From the NCBI RefSeq assembly GCF_050920415.1, contig NZ_CP169309.1: a DNA stretch of 64,000 nt. One strand, given 5' to 3'. The stretch's first letter is position 1; each line of letters begins with the position of its first letter. The translations under genes and the position numbers were made by a program. Positions 1,835 through 56,640 of the stretch are shown here, in pieces. The stretch is from Escherichia coli (GTDB taxonomy: Bacteria > Pseudomonadota > Gammaproteobacteria > Enterobacterales > Enterobacteriaceae). Under the pieces are notes generated by a model, which did not search any database, was not told the origin of the DNA, and worked only from the letters and a program-made list of their open reading frames with translations.

Positions 1835-2209
1835 ATGACTTCAACTGCACGCTCCTTTCGCTACGCGCTGGCAATCCTGACCACTACGTTGGTGACACCT
1901 TCCGTCTGGGCACATGCGCATTTAACGCATCAGTATCCTGCGGCAAACGCGCAAGTGACAGCTGCCCCGCAGGCAATCACTTTAAACTTCTCGGAAGGCG
2001 TTGAAACAGGATTCAGTGGTGCAAAAATCACGGGGCCAAAAAACGAAAATATTAAAACATTACCGGCGAAGCGGAATGAGCAGGACCAAAAGCAACTGAT
2101 TGTTCCACTGGCCGATTCGCTGAAACCCGGAACCTACACCGTTGACTGGCATGTTGTTTCGGTGGACGGGCATAAAACGAAAGGGCACTACACCTTTAGC
2201 GTGAAATAA
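1835..2209 (+). CDS. yobA: CopC-family periplasmic copper-binding protein
   Basis: ORF 124 aa with N-terminal signal peptide then HAHL... (mature N-terminal His typical of CopC Cu site). Confidence 0.9.
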   Translation: MTSTARSFRYALAILTTTLVTPSVWAHAHLTHQYPAANAQVTAAPQAITLNFSEGVETGFSGAKITGPKNENIKTLPAKRNEQDQKQLIVPLADSLKPGTYTVDWHVVSVDGHKTKGHYTFSVK

Positions 2210-2212
2210 ATC

Positions 2213-3085
2213 ATGCTGGCGTTTACCTGGATCGCGCTGCGATTTATCCATTTCACCTCGCTGATGCTGGTTTTTGGCTTCGCAATGTACGGTGCCTGGC
2301 TGGCCCCCTTAACGATTCGTCGCTTGCTGACGAAGCGTTTTCTGCGTTTACAACAGCACGCTGCCGTCTGGAGTTTGATCAGTGCCACTGCAATGCTCGC
2401 CGTTCAGGGCGGGTTGATGGGAACGGGATGGTCAGATGTATTTTCGCCAAACATTTGGCAGGCTGTTTTGCAAACGCAGTTTGGTGGCGTCTGGTTATGG
2501 CAAATTGTTCTCGCCCTCGTAACGTTGATCGTCGCCCTTATGCAACCGCGGAATATGCCACGTTTGCTGTTTATGCTCACTACCGCGCAATTTATTCTGC
2601 TGGCGGGAGTCGGGCATGCGACGCTGAATGAAGGGGTAACGGCGAAAATCCATCAGACTAATCACGCGATTCACCTGATCTGTGCGGCGGCGTGGTTTGG
2701 AGGATTACTTCCGGTGCTCTGGTGTATGCAACTCATCAAAGGCCGTTGGCGACACCAGGCTATTCAGGCGCTGATGCGTTTTTCCTGGTGCGGGCATTTT
2801 GCGGTGATCGGCGTACTGGCAAGCGGCGTGCTTAATGCATTGTTGATTACCAGATTTCCCCCCACGCTTACGACTTACTGGGGCCAACTCTTATTGCTCA
2901 AAGCCATCCTGGTGATGATTATGGTGGTCATCGCGCTGGCTAATCGTTATGTTCTTGTACCGCGCATGAGGCAGGATGAAAATCGTGCGGCTCCCTGGTT
3001 TGTGTGGATGACTAAACTCGAATGGGCGATAGGTGCGGTAGTGCTGGTGATCATCAGCCTGCTTGCGACTCTCGAACCTTTTTGA
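2213..3085 (+). CDS. copD: CopD-family inner membrane copper resistance protein
   Basis: ORF 290 aa, polytopic membrane protein, 3 nt after yobA stop (operon); matches YebZ/CopD. Confidence 0.9.
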   Translation: MLAFTWIALRFIHFTSLMLVFGFAMYGAWLAPLTIRRLLTKRFLRLQQHAAVWSLISATAMLAVQGGLMGTGWSDVFSPNIWQAVLQTQFGGVWLWQIVLALVTLIVALMQPRNMPRLLFMLTTAQFILLAGVGHATLNEGVTAKIHQTNHAIHLICAAAWFGGLLPVLWCMQLIKGRWRHQAIQALMRFSWCGHFAVIGVLASGVLNALLITRFPPTLTTYWGQLLLLKAILVMIMVVIALANRYVLVPRMRQDENRAAPWFVWMTKLEWAIGAVVLVIISLLATLEPF

Positions 3086-3097
3086 TGGATTACGAAA

Positions 3098-3439
3098 ATG
3101 ATGAAAAAAAGTATTCTGGCGTTTCTGTTACTCACCAGTTCTGCAGCGGCGCTGGCGGCACCGCAGGTGATTACCGTCAGTCGTTTTGAAGTGGGTAAAG
3201 ACAAATGGGCATTTAACCGCGAAGAGGTGATGCTGACATGCCGACCGGGCCATGCGTTGTATGTTATTAATCCGAGTACCCTCGTGCAGTATCCTTTGAA
3301 CGATATCGCACAAAAGGAAGTCGCCAGCGGGAAGACCAATGCCCAGCCCATTTCGGTGATTCAGATTGATGATCCTAACAATCCAGGTGAAAAAATGAGT
3401 CTGGCACCGTTTATAGAGCGAGCTGAAAAACTCTGTTAA
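3098..3439 (+). CDS. yebY: DUF2511 family secreted protein
   Basis: ORF 113 aa with signal peptide; third gene of yobA-copD-yebY operon. Confidence 0.85.
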
Positions 3440-16703: not shown

Positions 16704-17495
16704 ATGGCTAACGCAGATCTGGATAAACAGCCTGATTCTGTATCTTCCGTGCTGAAAGTTTTTGGCATTTTGCAGGCGCTGGGTGAAGAGCGCGAAATAG
16801 GGATAACCGAGCTGTCGCAGCGCGTCATGATGTCAAAAAGCACCGTTTATCGCTTTTTACAGACCATGAAAACCTTGGGTTATGTGGCGCAGGAAGGGGA
16901 GTCGGAGAAATATTCGCTGACCCTGAAATTGTTTGAACTGGGCGCTCGTGCGTTACAAAACGTCGATTTAATTCGTAGTGCAGATATCCAGATGCGTGAG
17001 ATCTCCCGCCTGACCAAAGAAACGATCCACCTCGGTGCTCTGGACGAAGACAGTATTGTTTACATCCACAAAATTGACTCTATGTACAATTTGCGCATGT
17101 ATTCACGGATTGGGCGTCGTAATCCGCTGTACAGCACCGCGATTGGTAAGGTACTGCTGGCATGGCGCGATCGCGATGAAGTGAAGCAAATTCTTGAGGG
17201 CGTGGAGTATAAACGCAGTACCGAACGGACCATCACCAGTACAGAAGCGTTATTACCCGTTCTGGACCAGGTGCGCGAGCAGGGGTATGGCGAAGATAAC
17301 GAAGAGCAGGAAGAAGGACTGCGTTGCATTGCGGTTCCGGTATTTGATCGCTTTGGCGTGGTCATTGCCGGTCTGAGCATCTCCTTCCCGACGTTGCGTT
17401 TCTCTGAAGAGCGTTTACAGGAATATGTCGCAATGTTGCATACCGCGGCGCGCAAAATTTCTGCACAAATGGGTTATCACGACTATCCGTTCTGA
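16704..17495 (+). CDS. kdgR: IclR-family transcriptional repressor KdgR
   Basis: ORF 263 aa; HTH N-domain plus IclR effector domain. Confidence 0.95.
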   Translation: MANADLDKQPDSVSSVLKVFGILQALGEEREIGITELSQRVMMSKSTVYRFLQTMKTLGYVAQEGESEKYSLTLKLFELGARALQNVDLIRSADIQMREISRLTKETIHLGALDEDSIVYIHKIDSMYNLRMYSRIGRRNPLYSTAIGKVLLAWRDRDEVKQILEGVEYKRSTERTITSTEALLPVLDQVREQGYGEDNEEQEEGLRCIAVPVFDRFGVVIAGLSISFPTLRFSEERLQEYVAMLHTAARKISAQMGYHDYPF

Positions 17496-17513
17496 TGAGA
17501 GTAAGAACCTGTC

Positions 17514-17550
17514 TGAATATCAAACAGACAGGTTCTTTATTTAGCATGAG
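17514..17550 (+). terminator. intrinsic terminator of kdgR
   Basis: 12-bp stem AGAACCTGTCTG / CAGACAGGTTCT followed by T-rich tract. Confidence 0.75.
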
Positions 17551-18036: not shown

Positions 18037-18180
18037 GTGAAAAAGTTTCGATGGGTCGTTCTGGTTGTCGTGGTGTTGGCTTGCTTGCTGCTTTGGGCGC
18101 AGGTATTCAACATGATGTGCGATCAGGATGTACAATTTTTCAGCGGAATTTGTGCCATTAACCAGTTTATCCCGTGGTGA
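18037..18180 (+). CDS. mgrB: PhoQ-inhibitory small membrane protein MgrB
   Basis: 47-codon GTG-initiated [50 protein letters not shown] read by eye; absent from ORF track (<60 aa). Confidence 0.9.
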
Positions 18181-18254: not shown

Positions 18255-18542
18255 ATGAACGAAGTTGTAAATTCAGGCGTGATGAACATTGCGTCTTTGG
18301 TTGTATCGGTGGTGGTTCTTCTTATCGGGCTCATCTTGTGGTTTTTTATCAATCGTGCCAGTTCACGAACTAACGAACAGATTGAACTGCTTGAGGCGTT
18401 GCTGGATCAGCAAAAACGTCAAAATGCACTGTTACGTCGTTTGTGCGAAGCAAACGAACCTGAGAAAGAAGATAAAAAGACCGTTGAGAGTCAAAAATCG
18501 GTTGAAGACGAAGATATTATTCGTCTGGTCGCCGAACGGTAA
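18255..18542 (+). CDS. yebO: uncharacterized membrane protein YebO
   Basis: ORF 95 aa; one TM helix then charged coiled C-terminus. Confidence 0.8.
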   Translation: MNEVVNSGVMNIASLVVSVVVLLIGLILWFFINRASSRTNEQIELLEALLDQQKRQNALLRRLCEANEPEKEDKKTVESQKSVEDEDIIRLVAER

Positions 18543-19211
18543 TCCTTCCTCAATCTTGAGTAACCCCGTCGTTGAAGGGTTACTCAATTCATCCTGATTA
18601 TACGCACTGTCATGGTGCAACTGCTTCAAATTAAAACTCTGGTCTGACTTCAAATAATTATCATATTATTTATTTGCGTAACGGGATATCAGAAAAAGAT
18701 ATTTAGCCCATTAATTTATTAGGATGTTTACATCGGATTTGTGATTAAGCGTGTTATTATTTATTAGCGAAACGTTTCTCTCTTGATTTTTTTGCGCATT
18801 CATCAATTTTTCTTATTTTAAATTTACAATACCTTTGGCGATTGACTTCTCTTTGGGGTGATTGATAGCCGTTAACTGACTGTTTTATGAGAAAAAGTGA
18901 TATAACTTTTTATTCATTGCATAGCAGAAAATGTGATATTGCACGCACTATGTAATAACTTCTCCCATTGGCCTGGAACAACTGAACTTATTGAACTATG
19001 TTAGAAAATACGTCAGTTTAAGTATCTGCCTGAACTGGCAAGGTTAAGCACAATGATATATCGGCGCGTATTCCGTTGCATAAGTGTGCAAAAAAAGTGG
19101 AAGACGTATCGAGATTTGTGCGTCTGATCGAGACATGTTTAAAAATGGCTTGCCATAATTAACGTTGTATGTGATAACAGATTTCGGGTTAAACGAGGTA
19201 CAGTTCTGTTT

Positions 19212-19355
19212 ATGTGTGGCATTTTCAGTAAAGAAGTCCTGAGTAAACACGTTGACGTTGAATACCGCTTCTCTGCCGAGCCTTATATTGGTGCCTCATG
19301 CAGTAATGTGTCAGTTTTATCTATGTTATGCCTGCGGGCGAAGAAAACAATCTAA
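19212..19355 (+). CDS. yobF: small protein YobF
   Basis: 47-codon [50 protein letters not shown] read by eye, 12 nt upstream of cspC; absent from ORF track. Confidence 0.8.
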
Positions 19356-19367
19356 GGAATTTTTCAA

Positions 19368-19577
19368 ATGGCAAAGATTAAAGGTCAGGTTAAGTGGTTC
19401 AACGAGTCTAAAGGTTTTGGCTTCATTACTCCGGCTGATGGCAGCAAAGACGTGTTCGTACACTTCTCCGCTATCCAGGGTAATGGCTTCAAAACTCTGG
19501 CTGAAGGTCAGAACGTTGAGTTCGAAATTCAGGACGGCCAGAAAGGTCCGGCAGCTGTTAACGTAACAGCTATCTGA
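19368..19577 (+). CDS. cspC: cold-shock-domain protein CspC
   Basis: ORF 69 aa [20 protein letters not shown]... with RNP motifs. Confidence 0.97.
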
Positions 19578-19622
19578 TCGAATCCACTGATCTGAAGTGT
19601 GAATACGCTTCAATCTCGCTAT

Positions 19623-19649
19623 AAAGCCTCGTCGAATGCGAGGCTTTTT
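19623..19649 (+). terminator. intrinsic terminator of cspC
   Basis: stem AAAGCCTCG / CGAGGCTTT followed by TT. Confidence 0.8.
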
Positions 19650-19742
19650 ACTTTGCTTTATCTTCGCTCCTGGCATTCGGATATTTGCCCGCCGCGTGAT
19701 TCGCGTTACACTTGCGGCCTTTAGTATCCTGCCGGAGTTGTC

Positions 19743-21124: not shown

Positions 21125-21345
21125 CTGACCGGGGTATCCATAAAACACACCATCGCCCCCAGCAAACATGCATACATGAACAACAAACCGCGATGATTTT
21201 CGCGTTCATGCAGGCATAGCGATTGATGTGCATATGGTCTCGCCTGACTGAAAGTGTTCAGTCCGTACGTGCCACGTTTTGCAACGAGTATGTTGACACG
21301 TACATTTCCGGAATCTGGAAATCGGCTACTCCCCAAATGAGGGCG
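21125..21345 (-). ncRNA. yybP-ykoY manganese riboswitch in mntP 5' leader (approximate bounds)
   Basis: Minus-strand motif GGGGAGTAGCC (complement of 21324..21334) typical of the yybP-ykoY class; long untranslated leader upstream of mntP. Confidence 0.5.
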
Positions 21346-21543
21346 CAACATTAACATATTTTTAGAATATAAAACAACTGTTGGGATATATTATTTCAGC
21401 AGTTAATTGATAACGATTTTCATTTAGATTTATATATCAATGAAACGTTAAAATAAATAACAAATAAGGGATGGGATAATATAGCCTAAGCTATGTCTGA
21501 TTATTTAAAATACAGCAAACATAGCTTTGGCTAAATTCATAAC

Positions 21544-22002
21544 TTATTGAGTGGAAACAAGAAGTTTATAAATTTTCTCCAGGTCGTCGATATTTCGAAC
21601 GCGGATTAACAGCCGGCGCTGTTCTAATTGCATCACCAACACGCCATCTTCAGACAAGTTCATCGCTTTAATTCGACTATATTCAATCCAGACATTGGCG
21701 AAGAAAAAACCTTTTTGTTTAAAGATGATCTTCGGAACGCGGATCCAGAATATATAAAAACCCATCAGAGCCAGTGCACTTAATAACCATGTCGTTATTT
21801 GCGCGCCATGATTCGTGACGTTGTTATAGATAAGAATGACAATCAATCCGACGAAGATAACGCTATCGATGCGACCACGCCGGAGCAAAGGAATTGCCAG
21901 CAGAGTGGGGCCGTTGCGGCGGGGCATGATGAACTGATCGTAGATCGCGAAGGTCAGGAGTGCGGCGATAAAAAGAATCAGTACCAGGTCCGTGATTGTC
22001 AT
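21544..22002 (-). CDS. yobD: UPF0266 inner membrane protein YobD
   Basis: ORF 152 aa, hydrophobic. Confidence 0.85.
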
Positions 22003-32251: not shown

Positions 32252-32309
32252 CACACTAATCCGTATCGCTTTCGTTATAGAAGCCGATGGTTATTTGATT
32301 GTGAGAAAA

Positions 32310-32342
32310 AGGACGCTTTTCATATGTGATTAAAAGCGTCCT
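32310..32342. terminator. bidirectional terminator hairpin (yoaH / yoaC)
   Basis: stem AGGACGCTTTT / AAAAGCGTCCT with 11-nt loop, A/T tracts on both sides. Confidence 0.65.
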
Positions 32343-32370
32343 GACCCATTTATGCTGATGTAAATTTAAC

Positions 32371-32670
32371 TTAGACCAGTGCTTTTAGTTCTTCCTGCAT
32401 ATATGTTGAAAAGTATTCAGGATTTTTAATCACAATGCGTTCACCAGACTCCATTTTTTTTGCCCATCCAACCATTTTTTCCGTGAACCCCGGGTTCCAG
32501 CCTTCCTGGTCAGCTCGCGCCGTAATATCAGCGGCACTCGCGGGTACTCCCAGTTCTTTCAAATATTTAAAGATTCCCTTCGCCGTGCTTTCATTCATCG
32601 AACTTGGTGTTGGCGCTGATACATCCATGGCACCAATGAAATCCAGGGCTTTATCTATTACAGCAGGCAT
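32371..32670 (-). CDS. yoaC: DUF1889 protein YoaC
   Basis: ORF 32371..32730; start at MPAVIDKALDF... gives 99 aa; start uncertain. Confidence 0.75.
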   Translation of the reverse strand: MPAVIDKALDFIGAMDVSAPTPSSMNESTAKGIFKYLKELGVPASAADITARADQEGWNPGFTEKMVGWAKKMESGERIVIKNPEYFSTYMQEELKALV

Positions 32671-33091
32671 ATTCTTATCCTTAAAATTAACCATGTTATC
32701 GATAAGGCTATATATGACCTTAATTTGCATCTAATATCAAAGGGATTATAACGATATGGCACGAGTTAACCTGTTGACATTCAGGTGTTTTAAAGGTAGC
32801 AGCTCATGGTGTGTTATCCAGTAAGAGGGAGAAAATTAACGGTCAGTTCTCACGCTATAACCAGATTGTTCAGCTAAGAAAGAAAACCAGAGATGCTAAT
32901 CGAAGGGCGAACACAACGGCATTGTTATGTTTATTTATATAGTTAGTTTTATAGCTAAAATTGAAATTATAAAAATAAATAATGAATTAGCAGGAGCATC
33001 AACAGTAATATCTTAATCTCTGGTCGATTTATGTAAAACCGACCAGTATTATCGATAAATTATCGTCTGACTTATTTTGCTTCGATAAAGC

Positions 33092-55164: not shown

Positions 55165-56640
55165 TTAAATATGATGAATAATCACTTTGTTGCCCCCCTC
55201 GCTTTTCGCTTCGCGTAAGGCTTTATCTGCTTCCGTCATGACAAGCGAGATATTACGCGTGTCACCCGTTGAAAAAACCGTGCCAATACTGATGGTCATT
55301 TGTTCAGGAACATCATATCTGTTACTAAAACCGGTCAGGAGTTCGACATTTTTACGCATACGTTCCGCAATGATTTTTGCCTGGGCACTATTGAGTTCGG
55401 TAAATAGCAAGCCAAACACCTCACCCTCCAGTCGCGCTAAAATATCATCGGGGCGGATGCTTTGCTGGATAATATCGACAATTGAAACCAGCACTTTATC
55501 ACCCACACGATGTCCCCATTGGGCATTGATGCGCTTGAACTGATTAATATCAACCAGCATGACACAAAAGTCCTTAACAACAGGTCGCGACAATAATGAC
55601 TCTACGCTGTTGAAAAAGTAGCGCCGATTATAAATATTGGTCAGTACATCATGAACTGCCAGTTTGCTGGAGAGTTGCAGTTCCTGAAAAATGTTATAAA
55701 TCAGAAAAGACACAACAAACAGTTTACTGGAAACTTCAATCCCGCGACTGATATACCAGATGGTGTAATTATACTCATCCAGAGTCAGTAGAAGTAAGTT
55801 GCAGCATAGCGATGCCAGACATAATAATGCTATTAACGGCCATAGTTCGCTGGCTAATCGTGTACGCATGATAATAAAGAACAGTAAAAATGCCCACAGA
55901 CAAACCAATATTTTTGTATAGTTGATTCCCCAGGTCGCAGTATGGTTGTCCGGACAGTAATCGACGACATACAAAGAATAGTCAGCGTTATAACTGCTCA
56001 GATTGTGTGCCAGAAGGGGAAAAAATAAAAAAGGAATCAGCGCCAGCAACAGAATGCCAGTTTTTTTCTTATTGTTGTCAAGGATGTTGTCTTTCCCATA
56101 ACAAAAGAGCGCCAGCGAGGTTAAACAAATGAAACTGAGTTGGCGGAAAATATAGAAAATAGAAACATCATTCGACTTTGTCTGGATCAGTGTACTGCCG
56201 TTGATTGGTTTATGGATAATTACAATGGTTTCAACTAAATAGATAAGGCCACTTAAAAATGCAAGGCTTAAAATGAGTGTTGGTAAAATTTGTTTGTTAG
56301 TGAAATACTTCATTAACATGAAAAGAAAAATGACGGCGTTAAGGAAAAACAAAGCCACAACAACCATCAGGTAATTCATCTGTGGGATGAGTTTTACATT
56401 CGTGTTTTCGTTATATAAGGTAGTAATGCAAAATAAAATTAACGTCAGCAATAAGCTGAAAATAAAAAAGCCTTGAGCTTTTAATTTTTGTGTACCCATA
56501 GAAGCCATAAAAAGGAGAGCAATGTGAGTGCTGGATTTTATTGATGGCAGAGATATATGGTTTTGACCAGGATCAATTTTCGTTGACGATAAAAAATAAT
56601 TAAAGAATAACCCCAGGGAAATACGTGTTGACCGAATCAT
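55165..56640 (-). CDS. yeaI: degenerate GGDEF-domain membrane protein YeaI (CdgI)
   Basis: ORF 491 aa; multi-TM N-terminus; GGDEF position reads EGEVF (RLEGEVFGLL); AT-rich coding sequence. Confidence 0.9.
   Translation of the reverse strand: MIRSTRISLGLFFNYFLSSTKIDPGQNHISLPSIKSSTHIALLFMASMGTQKLKAQGFFIFSLLLTLILFCITTLYNENTNVKLIPQMNYLMVVVALFFLNAVIFLFMLMKYFTNKQILPTLILSLAFLSGLIYLVETIVIIHKPINGSTLIQTKSNDVSIFYIFRQLSFICLTSLALFCYGKDNILDNNKKKTGILLLALIPFLFFPLLAHNLSSYNADYSLYVVDYCPDNHTATWGINYTKILVCLWAFLLFFIIMRTRLASELWPLIALLCLASLCCNLLLLTLDEYNYTIWYISRGIEVSSKLFVVSFLIYNIFQELQLSSKLAVHDVLTNIYNRRYFFNSVESLLSRPVVKDFCVMLVDINQFKRINAQWGHRVGDKVLVSIVDIIQQSIRPDDILARLEGEVFGLLFTELNSAQAKIIAERMRKNVELLTGFSNRYDVPEQMTISIGTVFSTGDTRNISLVMTEADKALREAKSEGGNKVIIHHI

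Follow-up and report, generated by a model that had tools for sequence, protein, structure and literature searches.

Among described systems, the leader of cspA comes close to the RNA that precedes Escherichia coli cspC, in that both lie before a cold-shock-domain gene over some 160-200 nt and carry a GCC-N4-GGC hairpin shortly before an A-rich Shine-Dalgarno sequence. Unlike the cspA leader, that of cspC contains a translated small ORF, yobF; cspC is not known to be induced by cold, and what has been reported at yobF is, unlike the thermal effect at cspA, heat induction of YobF. CspC is a global RNA chaperone whose loss is a recurrent outcome of selection, seen on succinate, during long-term stationary phase and in ageing colonies, so the setting of its level matters. 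Pairing of OxyS with yobF is said to go back to Tjaden in 2006. The DNA further upstream invites comparison with the H-NS-bound AT-rich regions that precede enterobacterial stress genes: it too is low in GC (0.34) and evolves fast, RNA polymerase binds it at several peaks, and it was flagged for HNS by genomic SELEX. It differs from them in that we know of no silencing phenotype for the yobF-cspC locus and in that cspC is abundantly expressed, so any role of H-NS would be modulatory. Within this DNA is a palindrome that shares with the operator of rbsD (RbsR, LacI/PurR family) its symmetry around a central CG and a perfect left half-site, AGCGAAAC; unlike the rbsD operator, it is about 440 nt upstream of yobF and over no known promoter.

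The locus, present in 5412 of 5426 complete E. coli genomes, is largely known already. A first-pass annotation of the window (the whole 64,000-nt stretch of E. coli DNA that was analysed, 100% identical to NZ_CP169399) took the gap between yebO and yobF for a 5′ leader of about 670 nt. With a probability of roughly 0.7, that gap is instead mostly upstream regulatory DNA, and the true long leader of the locus is the one that belongs to cspC and contains yobF. The genes and the major divisions of the region are as follows.

18255..18542, + strand: yebO coding sequence, 95 aa, Pfam YebO, the upstream neighbour
18555..18587, + strand: yebO 3′ hairpin, 11-bp stem, -21.4 kcal/mol, z -2.65
18601..19112, either strand: AT-rich, fast-evolving upstream spacer, GC 0.34, H-NS-bound flag and several RpoD peaks in vitro (PMC3946193)
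19113..19185, + strand: core promoter region, ultra-conserved, where two sigma-70 promoters overlap
19186..19211, + strand: yobF 5′ UTR, 26 nt from the validated start (48 nt from 19164)
19212..19355, + strand: yobF ORF, 47 aa, Pfam DUF2527 over residues 1-38, doubling as the body of the cspC leader
19330..19339, + strand: small hairpin GCC-UGCG-GGC, followed some 15 nt on by the Shine-Dalgarno of cspC
19354..19359, + strand: cspC Shine-Dalgarno AAGGAA, overlapping the yobF stop TAA (19353-55), predicted to be open
19368..19577, + strand: cspC coding sequence, 69 aa, cold-shock domain
19623..19655, + strand: yobF-cspC intrinsic terminator, 10-bp stem then T-run, -26.6 kcal/mol, z -3.6

The gap is 669 nt (18543-19211), and RefSeq has no annotated feature in it, either in K-12 or in the identical strain NZ_CP169399. 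Much of what was first said of its composition holds: its GC of 0.353 (window, 0.494) is among the lowest 0.8% for 669-nt stretches, and the judgement that it contains no credible ORF stands, as the ORFs of 20-31 aa that do occur include none conserved outside Escherichia, except one that overlaps conserved promoter DNA. The poly-A/T tracts come down to just two homopolymer runs of at least 6, T7 at 18787 and A7 at 19090, and though consensus promoter-hexamer sites are indeed present, their number (3) is at chance level (3.2 +/- 1.6 in shuffles). An antisense ORF of 68 aa (19044-19250) was set aside, its conservation tracking the promoter DNA and its per-position conservation string, inspected by eye, having no obvious codon periodicity. 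An Rfam search of the gap gave no family at E up to 10, and a scan for intrinsic terminators found none there. That yobF and cspC constitute one unit was correct, as they form one operon, and the yobF stop is 12 nt before the cspC ATG, the spacing originally given.

Conservation divides the gap sharply. In comparison with 22 genera other than Escherichia, most of 18543-19110 has an identity of 0.15-0.55, with a few islands reaching 0.74 and with 19010-19110 itself poorly conserved (0.25-0.57); from 19123 on, identity climbs to 0.81-0.99. The step at about 19113 marks the promoter and not the far, yebO, end of the gap, where a leader of the length first proposed would have placed it. Within the species, 11 of the 19 SNPs relative to K-12 are in 18706-19013 and none in 19014-19450. 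The spacer 18601-19112 thus appears to be regulatory DNA rather than leader, with its putative role at the DNA level.

Transcription starts agree with this division. The conserved segment contains two core promoters, with an A/T-rich block, TTTAAAAAT, upstream of both.

19130..19159, + strand: first sigma-70 promoter, GAGACA (19130-35), 18-nt spacing, tgCATAAT (19154-59), start near 19164
19150..19178, + strand: second sigma-70 promoter, TTGCCA (19150-55), 17-nt spacing, tgtGATAAC (19173-78), start at 19186

An experimentally validated E. coli start at U00096.2 1905641 corresponds by coordinates to 19186, which is 26 nt upstream of the yobF ATG, and falls within the span 19043-19280 covered by a ChIP peak of E-sigmaS in vivo. 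The second promoter is the one given for the locus, as TTGCCA-17-GATAAC, in the RpoD SELEX study, which also has several RpoD holoenzyme peaks in vitro in the 670-bp spacer together with the HNS flag (PMC3946193). A peak of RpoN holoenzyme in SELEX maps to about 19175, i.e. to the proximal promoter. In Salmonella the primer for a yobF::sfgfp fusion begins at GTTGTATGTGATAACAG, equivalent to window position 19164 and 48 nt before yobF (PMC10965054), a start that fits the GAGACA-18-CATAAT promoter. The proposal of a leader of about 670 nt had named a start immediately upstream of yobF as the result to set against it, and starts at 26 nt (19186) and, for Salmonella, 48 nt (19164) are what the available data show. 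The functionally long leader is that of cspC: 182-204 nt from the transcription start to the cspC AUG, containing yobF, and conserved as nucleotides.

The nature of this conservation sets yobF apart from its neighbours. YobF matches Pfam PF10736 (DUF2527; E 1.7e-30, residues 1-38 of the 38-position model), but relaxed third positions and an intact frame, as expected of protein-type evolution, were not seen for yobF. Identity at the three codon positions is 0.94/0.97/0.94 for yobF, against 1.0/1.0/0.83 for cspC, 0.75/0.92/0.58 for mgrB and 0.75/0.92/0.48 for yebO, and the variable sites of yobF are spread 16/16/15 over these positions. Its pS of 0.089 (pN/pS 0.44) compares with 0.26 for cspC, 0.66 for mgrB and 0.74 for yebO, which amounts to synonymous-site conservation some 8-fold higher than in the neighbouring genes (0.089 vs 0.66-0.74). 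Across loci the ORF is 24, 38, 43, 47 or 56 aa long, and its frame is broken in Kosakonia and in 9 loci altogether, while the distance from the yobF ATG to the cspC ATG is steady at 155-159 nt. Low pS together with a variable or broken ORF suggests that it is the nucleotide sequence as such that is constrained; expression of YobF protein and a phenotype have nevertheless been reported (PMC11429745).

The transcript is controlled post-transcriptionally by an sRNA, OxyS. The sequence GGGTTAAACGAGG at 19186-19198, which covers the yobF Shine-Dalgarno GAGG (19195-19198), was found by direct seed-complement search to be complementary at 12 of 13 positions to OxyS nt 15-27 (CCUCUUUUAACCC); a duplexfold of full-length OxyS with the target was uninformative, its score being at the median of random windows. 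OxyS represses yobF in Salmonella and an oxyS-GG mutation relieves the repression (PMC10965054); relative to the pairing described there (Wenner 2024), the site is unchanged here, and it belongs to the short UTR next to yobF and not to the 570-nt spacer. Heat raises YobF post-transcriptionally (Hemm 2010, as cited in PMC11429745). The early expectation of sRNA-binding or thermosensor elements in a long leader was therefore right in kind, with an OxyS site and a post-transcriptional heat effect, and wrong in place, the sRNA-binding and candidate thermosensing elements being in the 26-48-nt UTR and the yobF ORF instead of the 570 nt upstream.

Folding of the leader was predicted at several temperatures, as had been suggested for a check. 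The folds are nearly constant from 15 to 50 °C, the predicted unpaired probability of the yobF Shine-Dalgarno rising only from 0.03 at 37 °C to 0.06 at 45 °C, and in single-sequence folding the leader is no more stable than shuffles (MFE z +1.0). Consensus folding of 69 leaders gave 2 pairs with compensatory change, the near-invariant alignment carrying too little variation to support structure; the hairpin at 19330-19339 is the only helix of the consensus fold with such changes. Across the predicted folds the yobF Shine-Dalgarno is unpaired with a probability of 0.02-0.2, that of cspC with 0.76-0.79. A paired yobF and an open cspC Shine-Dalgarno agree with the span of more than 100-fold in translation efficiency that a ribosome profiling study illustrated with the yobF-cspC operon.

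The hairpin at 19330-19339 also aligns, with high posterior, to the cspA 5′ UTR hairpin GCCGAAAGGC. The Rfam cspA thermoregulator model RF01766 matches 19192-19652 (135.7 bits against a gathering threshold of 78, E 6e-36), with the caveat that its high-posterior columns, from which the score stems, are those of the coding sequence and the terminator. The leader alone (19100-19367) had no match in Rfam to cspA, ROSE or fourU at E up to 10, nhmmer with a profile of 76 leader sequences found nothing in the cspA locus, and local alignments of the leader with the cspA 5′ UTR are weak (z 1.6-3.0, with 11-169 of 500 shuffles reaching the observed score). The leader thus shows no significant homology with the 5′ UTR of cspA, pairwise or by profile.

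The few conserved islands of the spacer have the look of protein-binding sites.

18764..18783, either strand: LacI-family operator-like palindrome TTAGCGAAACGTTTCTCTCT, by sequence match to the rbsD operator
18797..18830, + strand: family-wide module, degenerate copy, TGTCAT-N5-TTTCAT...TTTTGGTGCA
18929..18949, either strand: CRP site aaaTGTGAtattgcACGCAct, equal to K-12 1907854-1907874, in the in vitro Footprint-seq table (PMC12871828)
18973..19008, + strand: footprint CTGGAA..GAAcTTATTGAgCTATGgTAgAAA, from conservation
19078..19090, either strand: footprint GCATAAnnGTGCA, from conservation

The palindrome matches the K-12 rbsD operator TCAGCGAAACGTTTCGCTGA at 16 of 20 positions, and at 15 of 16 in the core. 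Of 77 loci, 70 have that core, CGAAACGTTT, once in the spacer, between -382 and -585 relative to the yobF ATG; it occurs nowhere else on the + strand of the 77 loci. The palindrome is invariant in Escherichia, Salmonella and Citrobacter, and outside these its right half degenerates to GTTTTTAT. Half-sites were also compared with the consensus sequences for PurR, Cra and KdgR, readings that were rejected, and RbsR fits best, which suggests an RbsR-type operator with RbsR as the putative binding protein; no paper linking RbsR with yebO or yobF was found in the searchable literature. In Salmonella, loss of RbsR and loss of CspC both give fast growth on succinate, the RbsR effect being ascribed to RpoS, with RpoS levels unchanged in the cspC mutant (PMC10965054).

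The module that follows was scored as a Pho box for PhoB, taken as two CTGTCAT repeats 11 bp apart and about 10 bp before a -10 element. The E. coli copy is degenerate (12/18) and was rejected as such; at the same position 50 other loci score 14-16/18, and all 13 hits of at least 15/18 fall there. In E. coli it is followed by TACAAT at 18825-18830, and module and TACAAT together would make a hypothetical distal promoter. An NtrC or sigma-54 reading of TTTTGGTGCA was abandoned, the RpoN SELEX peak being at the proximal promoter instead. Neither strand of the module is predicted to fold stably (z +0.8 and +1.45). The CRP site, TGTGA-tattgc-ACGCA, has half-sites of 5/5 and 3/5 relative to TGTGA-N6-TCACA and is kept in full within Escherichia only; genomic SELEX targets of CRP include yobF. 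Being 225-250 nt from the proximal starts, it is too far for classical activation of them. The footprint at 18973-19008 contains a weak candidate promoter, TGGAAC-17-TATGTT, at 18974-19002.

Such elements raise the possibility, which we consider on the unlikely side, of a second promoter in the spacer, from which some transcripts would start near 18837, 18947 or 19009 and have a UTR of about 180-390 nt before yobF; in that case the long leader first proposed would be correct in part, for an mRNA isoform made under particular conditions and controlled by CRP or by the RbsR-like and OmpR-type sites. The several RpoD holoenzyme peaks in the spacer (PMC3946193), a CRP site too remote to serve the proximal starts, the conserved palindrome and direct-repeat module with TACAAT beyond it in E. 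coli, and the conservation of TGGAAC-17-TATGTT would all be accommodated, as would Table 1 of the Salmonella study (PMC10965054), whose positions for the SalComMac start (1893683), the Tn5 insertions "in the 5′-UTR" (1893511 and 1893502) and that "in cspC" (1893137) are mutually consistent only with a start 181-390 nt before the yobF ATG. However, the 5′ UTR fusion in that same study was built from the 48-nt start, so something in the table may be mistyped; the validated start, like the E-sigmaS ChIP peak, is proximal, and a 200-500-bp upstream fragment had no transcriptional reporter activity under low Mg2+ (PMC11429745). Further, conservation is poor over 19010-19110, which would be part of such a UTR, and promoter-like matches in this AT-rich spacer are at chance level.

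That the whole gap could instead be transcribed as leader by read-through from mgrB-yebO, coupling yobF-cspC to PhoPQ, is very unlikely. The yebO 3′ hairpin, present at the same position in Salmonella and Citrobacter with a different sequence, is followed by UUCAUCC without a U-run and probably acts as a weak terminator or stabilises the 3′ end, which with the lack of an intrinsic terminator in the gap scan would permit read-through, and YobF ribosome footprints go up in low Mg2+; yobF mRNA, however, is unchanged under that condition (both PMC11429745), and the spacer is not conserved in the manner of an RNA. Moreover, 34 of the 80 loci compared have a gene for a 330-aa hydrolase between yebO and the spacer, and yet spacer and proximal promoter are retained (no remnant of it was found in the E. 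coli gap), and Rho would be expected to halt an untranslated AT-rich transcript of 670 nt. Even less is to be expected of an unannotated gene, sRNA or small protein hidden on either strand. A sigma-S run-off array signal in vitro from yobF-yebO intergenic probes on the K-12 forward strand, i.e. antisense to yobF, and the several conserved islands without assigned function would speak for one; against it are the absence from the gap of any Rfam family at E up to 10, of a terminator-like site and of a small ORF conserved beyond Escherichia, the lack of a stable fold in the conserved module, and the form of the islands, short palindromes or direct repeats that are typical of protein-binding DNA.

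On the preferred reading, the spacer of about 570 bp would act at the DNA level, as a place where nucleoid and transcription factors bind, with H-NS (flagged in vitro), the CRP site, the RbsR-type operator-like palindrome and the other footprints as candidate inputs. The right-hand 100 bp or so (19113-19211) holds the two overlapping sigma-70 promoters, with sigma-S RNA polymerase also present, and transcripts begin 48 nt (19164) or 26 nt (19186) before yobF. Predicted base-pairing of the yobF Shine-Dalgarno and AUG would keep yobF translation low, OxyS pairing over that Shine-Dalgarno represses it, and heat raises YobF post-transcriptionally, with the cspC Shine-Dalgarno remaining open and probably initiating independently.

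For the annotation of genomes by scanning, a long AT-rich gap beside a cold-shock gene is not to be called a leader without 5′-end data. The control elements of CspC are in the 100-bp ultra-conserved promoter and the leader of about 200 nt that contains yobF, and a testable lead is that synonymous changes in yobF should affect cspC. A bolder joint reading, which we regard as doubtful, is that yobF functions foremost as RNA in cis and is for cspC what the long leaders are for other csp genes, with selection on its nucleotides and not on its peptide, and that the RbsR-type operator and OmpR/PhoB-type direct-repeat module about 400-450 bp upstream mark, across Enterobacteriaceae, a condition-specific distal promoter. 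If that were true, yobF RNA would set cspC output via Shine-Dalgarno occlusion, OxyS and temperature, and the distal promoter would make CspC responsive to ribose or phosphate status; the RbsR-like operator, conserved across the family, may add a sugar-sensing input, which is a second testable lead.

The gap between yebO and yobF (18543-19211) does exist and its AT content is unusually high, but it holds no 670-nt leader. Its yobF end comprises an ultra-conserved proximal promoter and the short yobF UTR, which bears an OxyS site; the remainder is a long upstream spacer that appears to be regulatory. The locus is already largely characterised. The segment 18200-19700 is 100% identical with Escherichia coli strain MFDS1022581, and the locus is found in 5412 of 5426 complete genomes. 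In K-12 the gap is NC_000913.3 1907592-1908260, minus strand, an interval in which the RefSeq annotation has no feature. The genes are ordered as follows.

kdgR, then yobH (- strand): left end of the gene order
18037-18180: mgrB
18255-18542: yebO
19212-19355: yobF
19368-19577: cspC
from 19743: rlmA, the gene after cspC

In many E. coli genomes the gene at 19368-19577 carries the RefSeq/PGAP label 'cspE'; position and K-12 annotation make it cspC. A Salmonella enterica locus (L087) has a penicillin-binding-protein (transpeptidase) gene, at 2086-3144 of its contig, next after cspC where E. coli has rlmA. Between the convergent kdgR and yobH lies a long perfect inverted repeat (17461-17546; AGGAACCTGTCTG...CAGACAGGTTCTT), probably a bidirectional terminator, that matches Rfam at chance level only.

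The first-pass annotation had recorded about 670 nt of AT-rich DNA without a credible ORF, and rightly so: the gap is 669 nt long with 35.3% GC (window 49.4%), within the lowest 0.8% of the window's 669-nt windows, and has one T7 and one A7 run. Mechanical ORFs of 20-31 aa are present in it, none of them kept beyond Escherichia bar one that merely overlaps conserved promoter DNA, and an Rfam search of the gap gave no family match even at E up to 10. The promoter-like hexamers that had also been pointed out do exist, but their number, 3 against 3.2 +/- 1.6 expected, is that of chance and they are without evidential weight. Other AT-rich segments of the window are 21300-21600 (GC 0.275-0.31 in 200-nt windows) and, in 669-nt windows, the regions near 32300-32700 (about 0.38) and 55900-56300 (0.33, at least as extreme as the yebO-yobF gap).

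Transcription starts near yobF on three independent lines: a validated TSS, a promoter from RpoD genomic SELEX and a Salmonella fusion. Because the two K-12 coordinate versions differ here by 1976 bp (from the label IG1905616_1906284 and the NC_000913.3 coordinates), the validated E. coli TSS, U00096.2 1905641, is at window position 19186, 26 nt before the yobF ATG; it lies inside an E-sigmaS ChIP peak (1905547-1905784, window 19043-19280). The yobF promoter of the RpoD paper is TTGCCA-17-GATAAC (PMC3946193), and the forward primer of a Salmonella yobF::sfgfp translational fusion made from the "5'-UTR of yobF" (PMC10965054) starts the insert at GTTGTATGTGATAACAG, which corresponds to window 19164 and lies 48 nt upstream of the ATG. 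A peak of RpoN holoenzyme SELEX (U00096.2 1905652, about 19175) coincides with this known, ultra-conserved proximal promoter.

19130-19159, + strand: GAGACA-18-tgCATAAT, second consensus promoter, compatible with a start at 19164
19150-19155 and 19173-19178, + strand: TTGCCA and GATAAC, promoter compatible with the TSS at 19186

The whole gap had been taken for a leader of yobF-cspC; the refuting result named beforehand was a start right next to yobF, and the data give just this, with the validated TSS 26 nt and the Salmonella fusion start 48 nt ahead of yobF. A distal promoter further upstream is a serious, if less likely, alternative. It is raised by Table 1 of the Salmonella 4/74 study, which gives a TSS at 1893683 and Tn5 insertions labelled "in the 5'-UTR" (1893511, 1893502) and "in cspC" (1893137; PMC10965054): set on a Salmonella contig with yobF at 1501-1644 and cspC at 1657-1866, these agree mutually only with a TSS 181-390 nt ahead of yobF, which conflicts with the 48-nt yobF::sfgfp primer of the same paper. 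Either the distal TSS is real or one coordinate was mistyped. In sigma-S in vitro run-off arrays, a yobF-yebO intergenic probe for the K-12 forward strand gave signal, as did a CFT073 ORF that lies antisense to cspC; this hints at antisense transcription over 18543-19577 on the minus strand.

Conservation likewise has the profile of a proximal promoter and its transcribed region, unlike that of a 670-nt RNA. Throughout the 80 loci fetched across Enterobacteriaceae with YebO as query, the order mgrB-yebO-gap-yobF-cspC is preserved. In the comparison with 22 non-Escherichia genera, identity stays at 0.15-0.55 for most of 18543-19110 and reaches 0.81-0.99 from 19123 across yobF up to the cspC start; 19113-19211, with both promoters, is near-invariant among Escherichia, Salmonella and Citrobacter. 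The 19 differences from K-12 in 1.76 kb include 11 in 18706-19013 and none in 19014-19450. Directly after yebO and before the spacer, 34 of the 80 loci have a gene for a 330-aa metallo-beta-lactamase-fold hydrolase (Pfam Lactamase_B_2; for example L012 2808-3803 and L028 2809-3798), and keep some 520 non-coding nt ahead of yobF; a search of the E. coli gap for a remnant of this gene found none.

The upstream 570 nt contain the following.

18555-18587: hairpin just 3' of yebO, no U-run
18764-18783: RbsR-like palindrome TTAGCGAAACGTTTCTCTCT
18909-18940, 18973-19008 and 19078-19090: conserved footprints in an alignment of the closer set
18929-18949: CRP site, among the in vitro footprinted sites (PMC12871828), coordinates checked

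The palindrome agrees with the K-12 rbsD operator (TCAGCGAAACGTTTCGCTGA) at 16 of 20 positions, the left half-site being perfect. In 70 of 77 loci the spacer has exactly one copy of the 10-mer CGAAACGTTT, 382-585 nt upstream of yobF, and the + strand of these loci has no other; the right half is degenerate in more distant genera. A literature search found no paper linking RbsR with the yebO-yobF gap; a Salmonella succinate study obtained rbsR and cspC mutants from one selection (PMC10965054). Judged by its sequence, this putative RbsR-like operator module, conserved as it is, offers a new lead.

About 25 nt beyond the palindrome is a family-wide direct repeat, TGTCAT-N5-TTTCAT, and then TTTTGGTGCA. 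The repeat agrees with the Pho-box consensus at 14-16 of 18 positions in 50 loci, and all 13 matches of at least 15/18 in the data set sit at this position. Such Pho-box-like repeats (e.g. CTGTCATTAAACTTTCAT), in about 50 non-Escherichia loci (L010-L082), lie about 410-430 nt before yobF beside the RbsR-like palindrome and are degenerate in E. coli and Salmonella; the E. coli copy (18797-18814) has decayed to 12/18 and is followed by TACAAT (18825-18830). Two copies of a 20-nt direct repeat, differing at 2 positions, lie 91 nt apart: the one at 18664-18683 (TATTATTTATTTGCGTAACG) is not kept beyond E. coli, and the one at 18755-18774 (TATTATTTATTAGCGAAACG) runs into the palindrome. yobF is a CRP SELEX target, and the complete CRP site is retained only in Escherichia. 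The palindrome of 18909-18940 has clade-dependent forms: TTATGCAT-N6-GCATAA in Salmonella and Citrobacter, with AAAAGTGATAT after it, and TGCATA-NN-TATGCA in 21 other loci. An H-NS flag and several RNA polymerase peaks are reported in the "670 bp spacer" (PMC3946193). Short palindromes and direct repeats within fast-evolving AT-rich DNA look like protein-binding regulatory DNA.

An sRNA-binding element had been thought possible in the long leader. One exists, and is known, but in the short yobF UTR: the segment 19186-19198, spanning the yobF Shine-Dalgarno, is a 12/13 complement of the OxyS loop (nt 15-27, CCUCUUUUAACCC), and a yobF fusion is repressed about 3-fold by OxyS, less so with a loop mutation (PMC10965054). 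Folding predictions give low unpaired probabilities (0.02-0.2, mostly paired) for the Shine-Dalgarno and AUG of yobF and high ones (0.76-0.79, open) for the cspC Shine-Dalgarno, which overlaps the yobF stop codon; this is consistent with the translation-efficiency range of more than 100-fold that a ribosome-profiling study illustrated with the yobF-cspC operon. Heat induction of YobF is post-transcriptional according to Hemm 2010, as cited in PMC11429745; a temperature series of folding gave slight opening only. The predicted stability of the leader does not exceed that of its shuffles (z +1.0) and, the sequence being near-invariant, covariation is confined to a small GCC-N4-GGC hairpin (19330-19339), so the structural model is a predicted one. 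RF01766, the cspA thermoregulator, matches 19192-19652 with 135.7 bits, but the leader by itself yields no match and comparing its sequence with the cspA 5' UTR gave no significant result. We therefore do not file the leader in that family, although the layouts are similar: the small hairpin, and its distance from the Shine-Dalgarno, correspond to the cspA element.

A long leader of the kind usual for csp genes does exist here, but it belongs to cspC and includes yobF: 182-204 nt from TSS to cspC AUG. Its evolution is unlike that of a protein-coding gene. Over yobF codons 1-37 the identity at the three codon positions is 0.94/0.97/0.94, against 1.0/1.0/0.83 in cspC, 0.75/0.92/0.58 in mgrB and 0.75/0.92/0.48 in yebO, and variable sites per codon position number 16/16/15 in yobF against 0/1/41 in cspC. 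Synonymous divergence (pS) is 0.089 for yobF (pN/pS 0.44); cspC has 0.26, and the flanking mgrB and yebO have 0.66 and 0.74. The ATG-to-ATG spacing of yobF and cspC is constant at 155-159 nt. The DUF2527 Pfam model spans YobF residues 1-38 only, the frame is broken in 9 of the loci L003-L082 (Kosakonia-type), and ORF length by genus is 24, 38, 43, 47, 48 or 56 aa, the 56-aa form overlapping the cspC start, so translational coupling by way of the E. coli stop/Shine-Dalgarno overlap is not conserved. YobF is nonetheless a real product, epitope-tagged and membrane-associated, and its growth phenotype in low Mg2+ is not complemented by a start-codon mutant (PMC11429745). With a real product and non-coding-like evolution together, this stretch seems to serve two functions, and the nucleotide-level constraint on yobF is a new lead.
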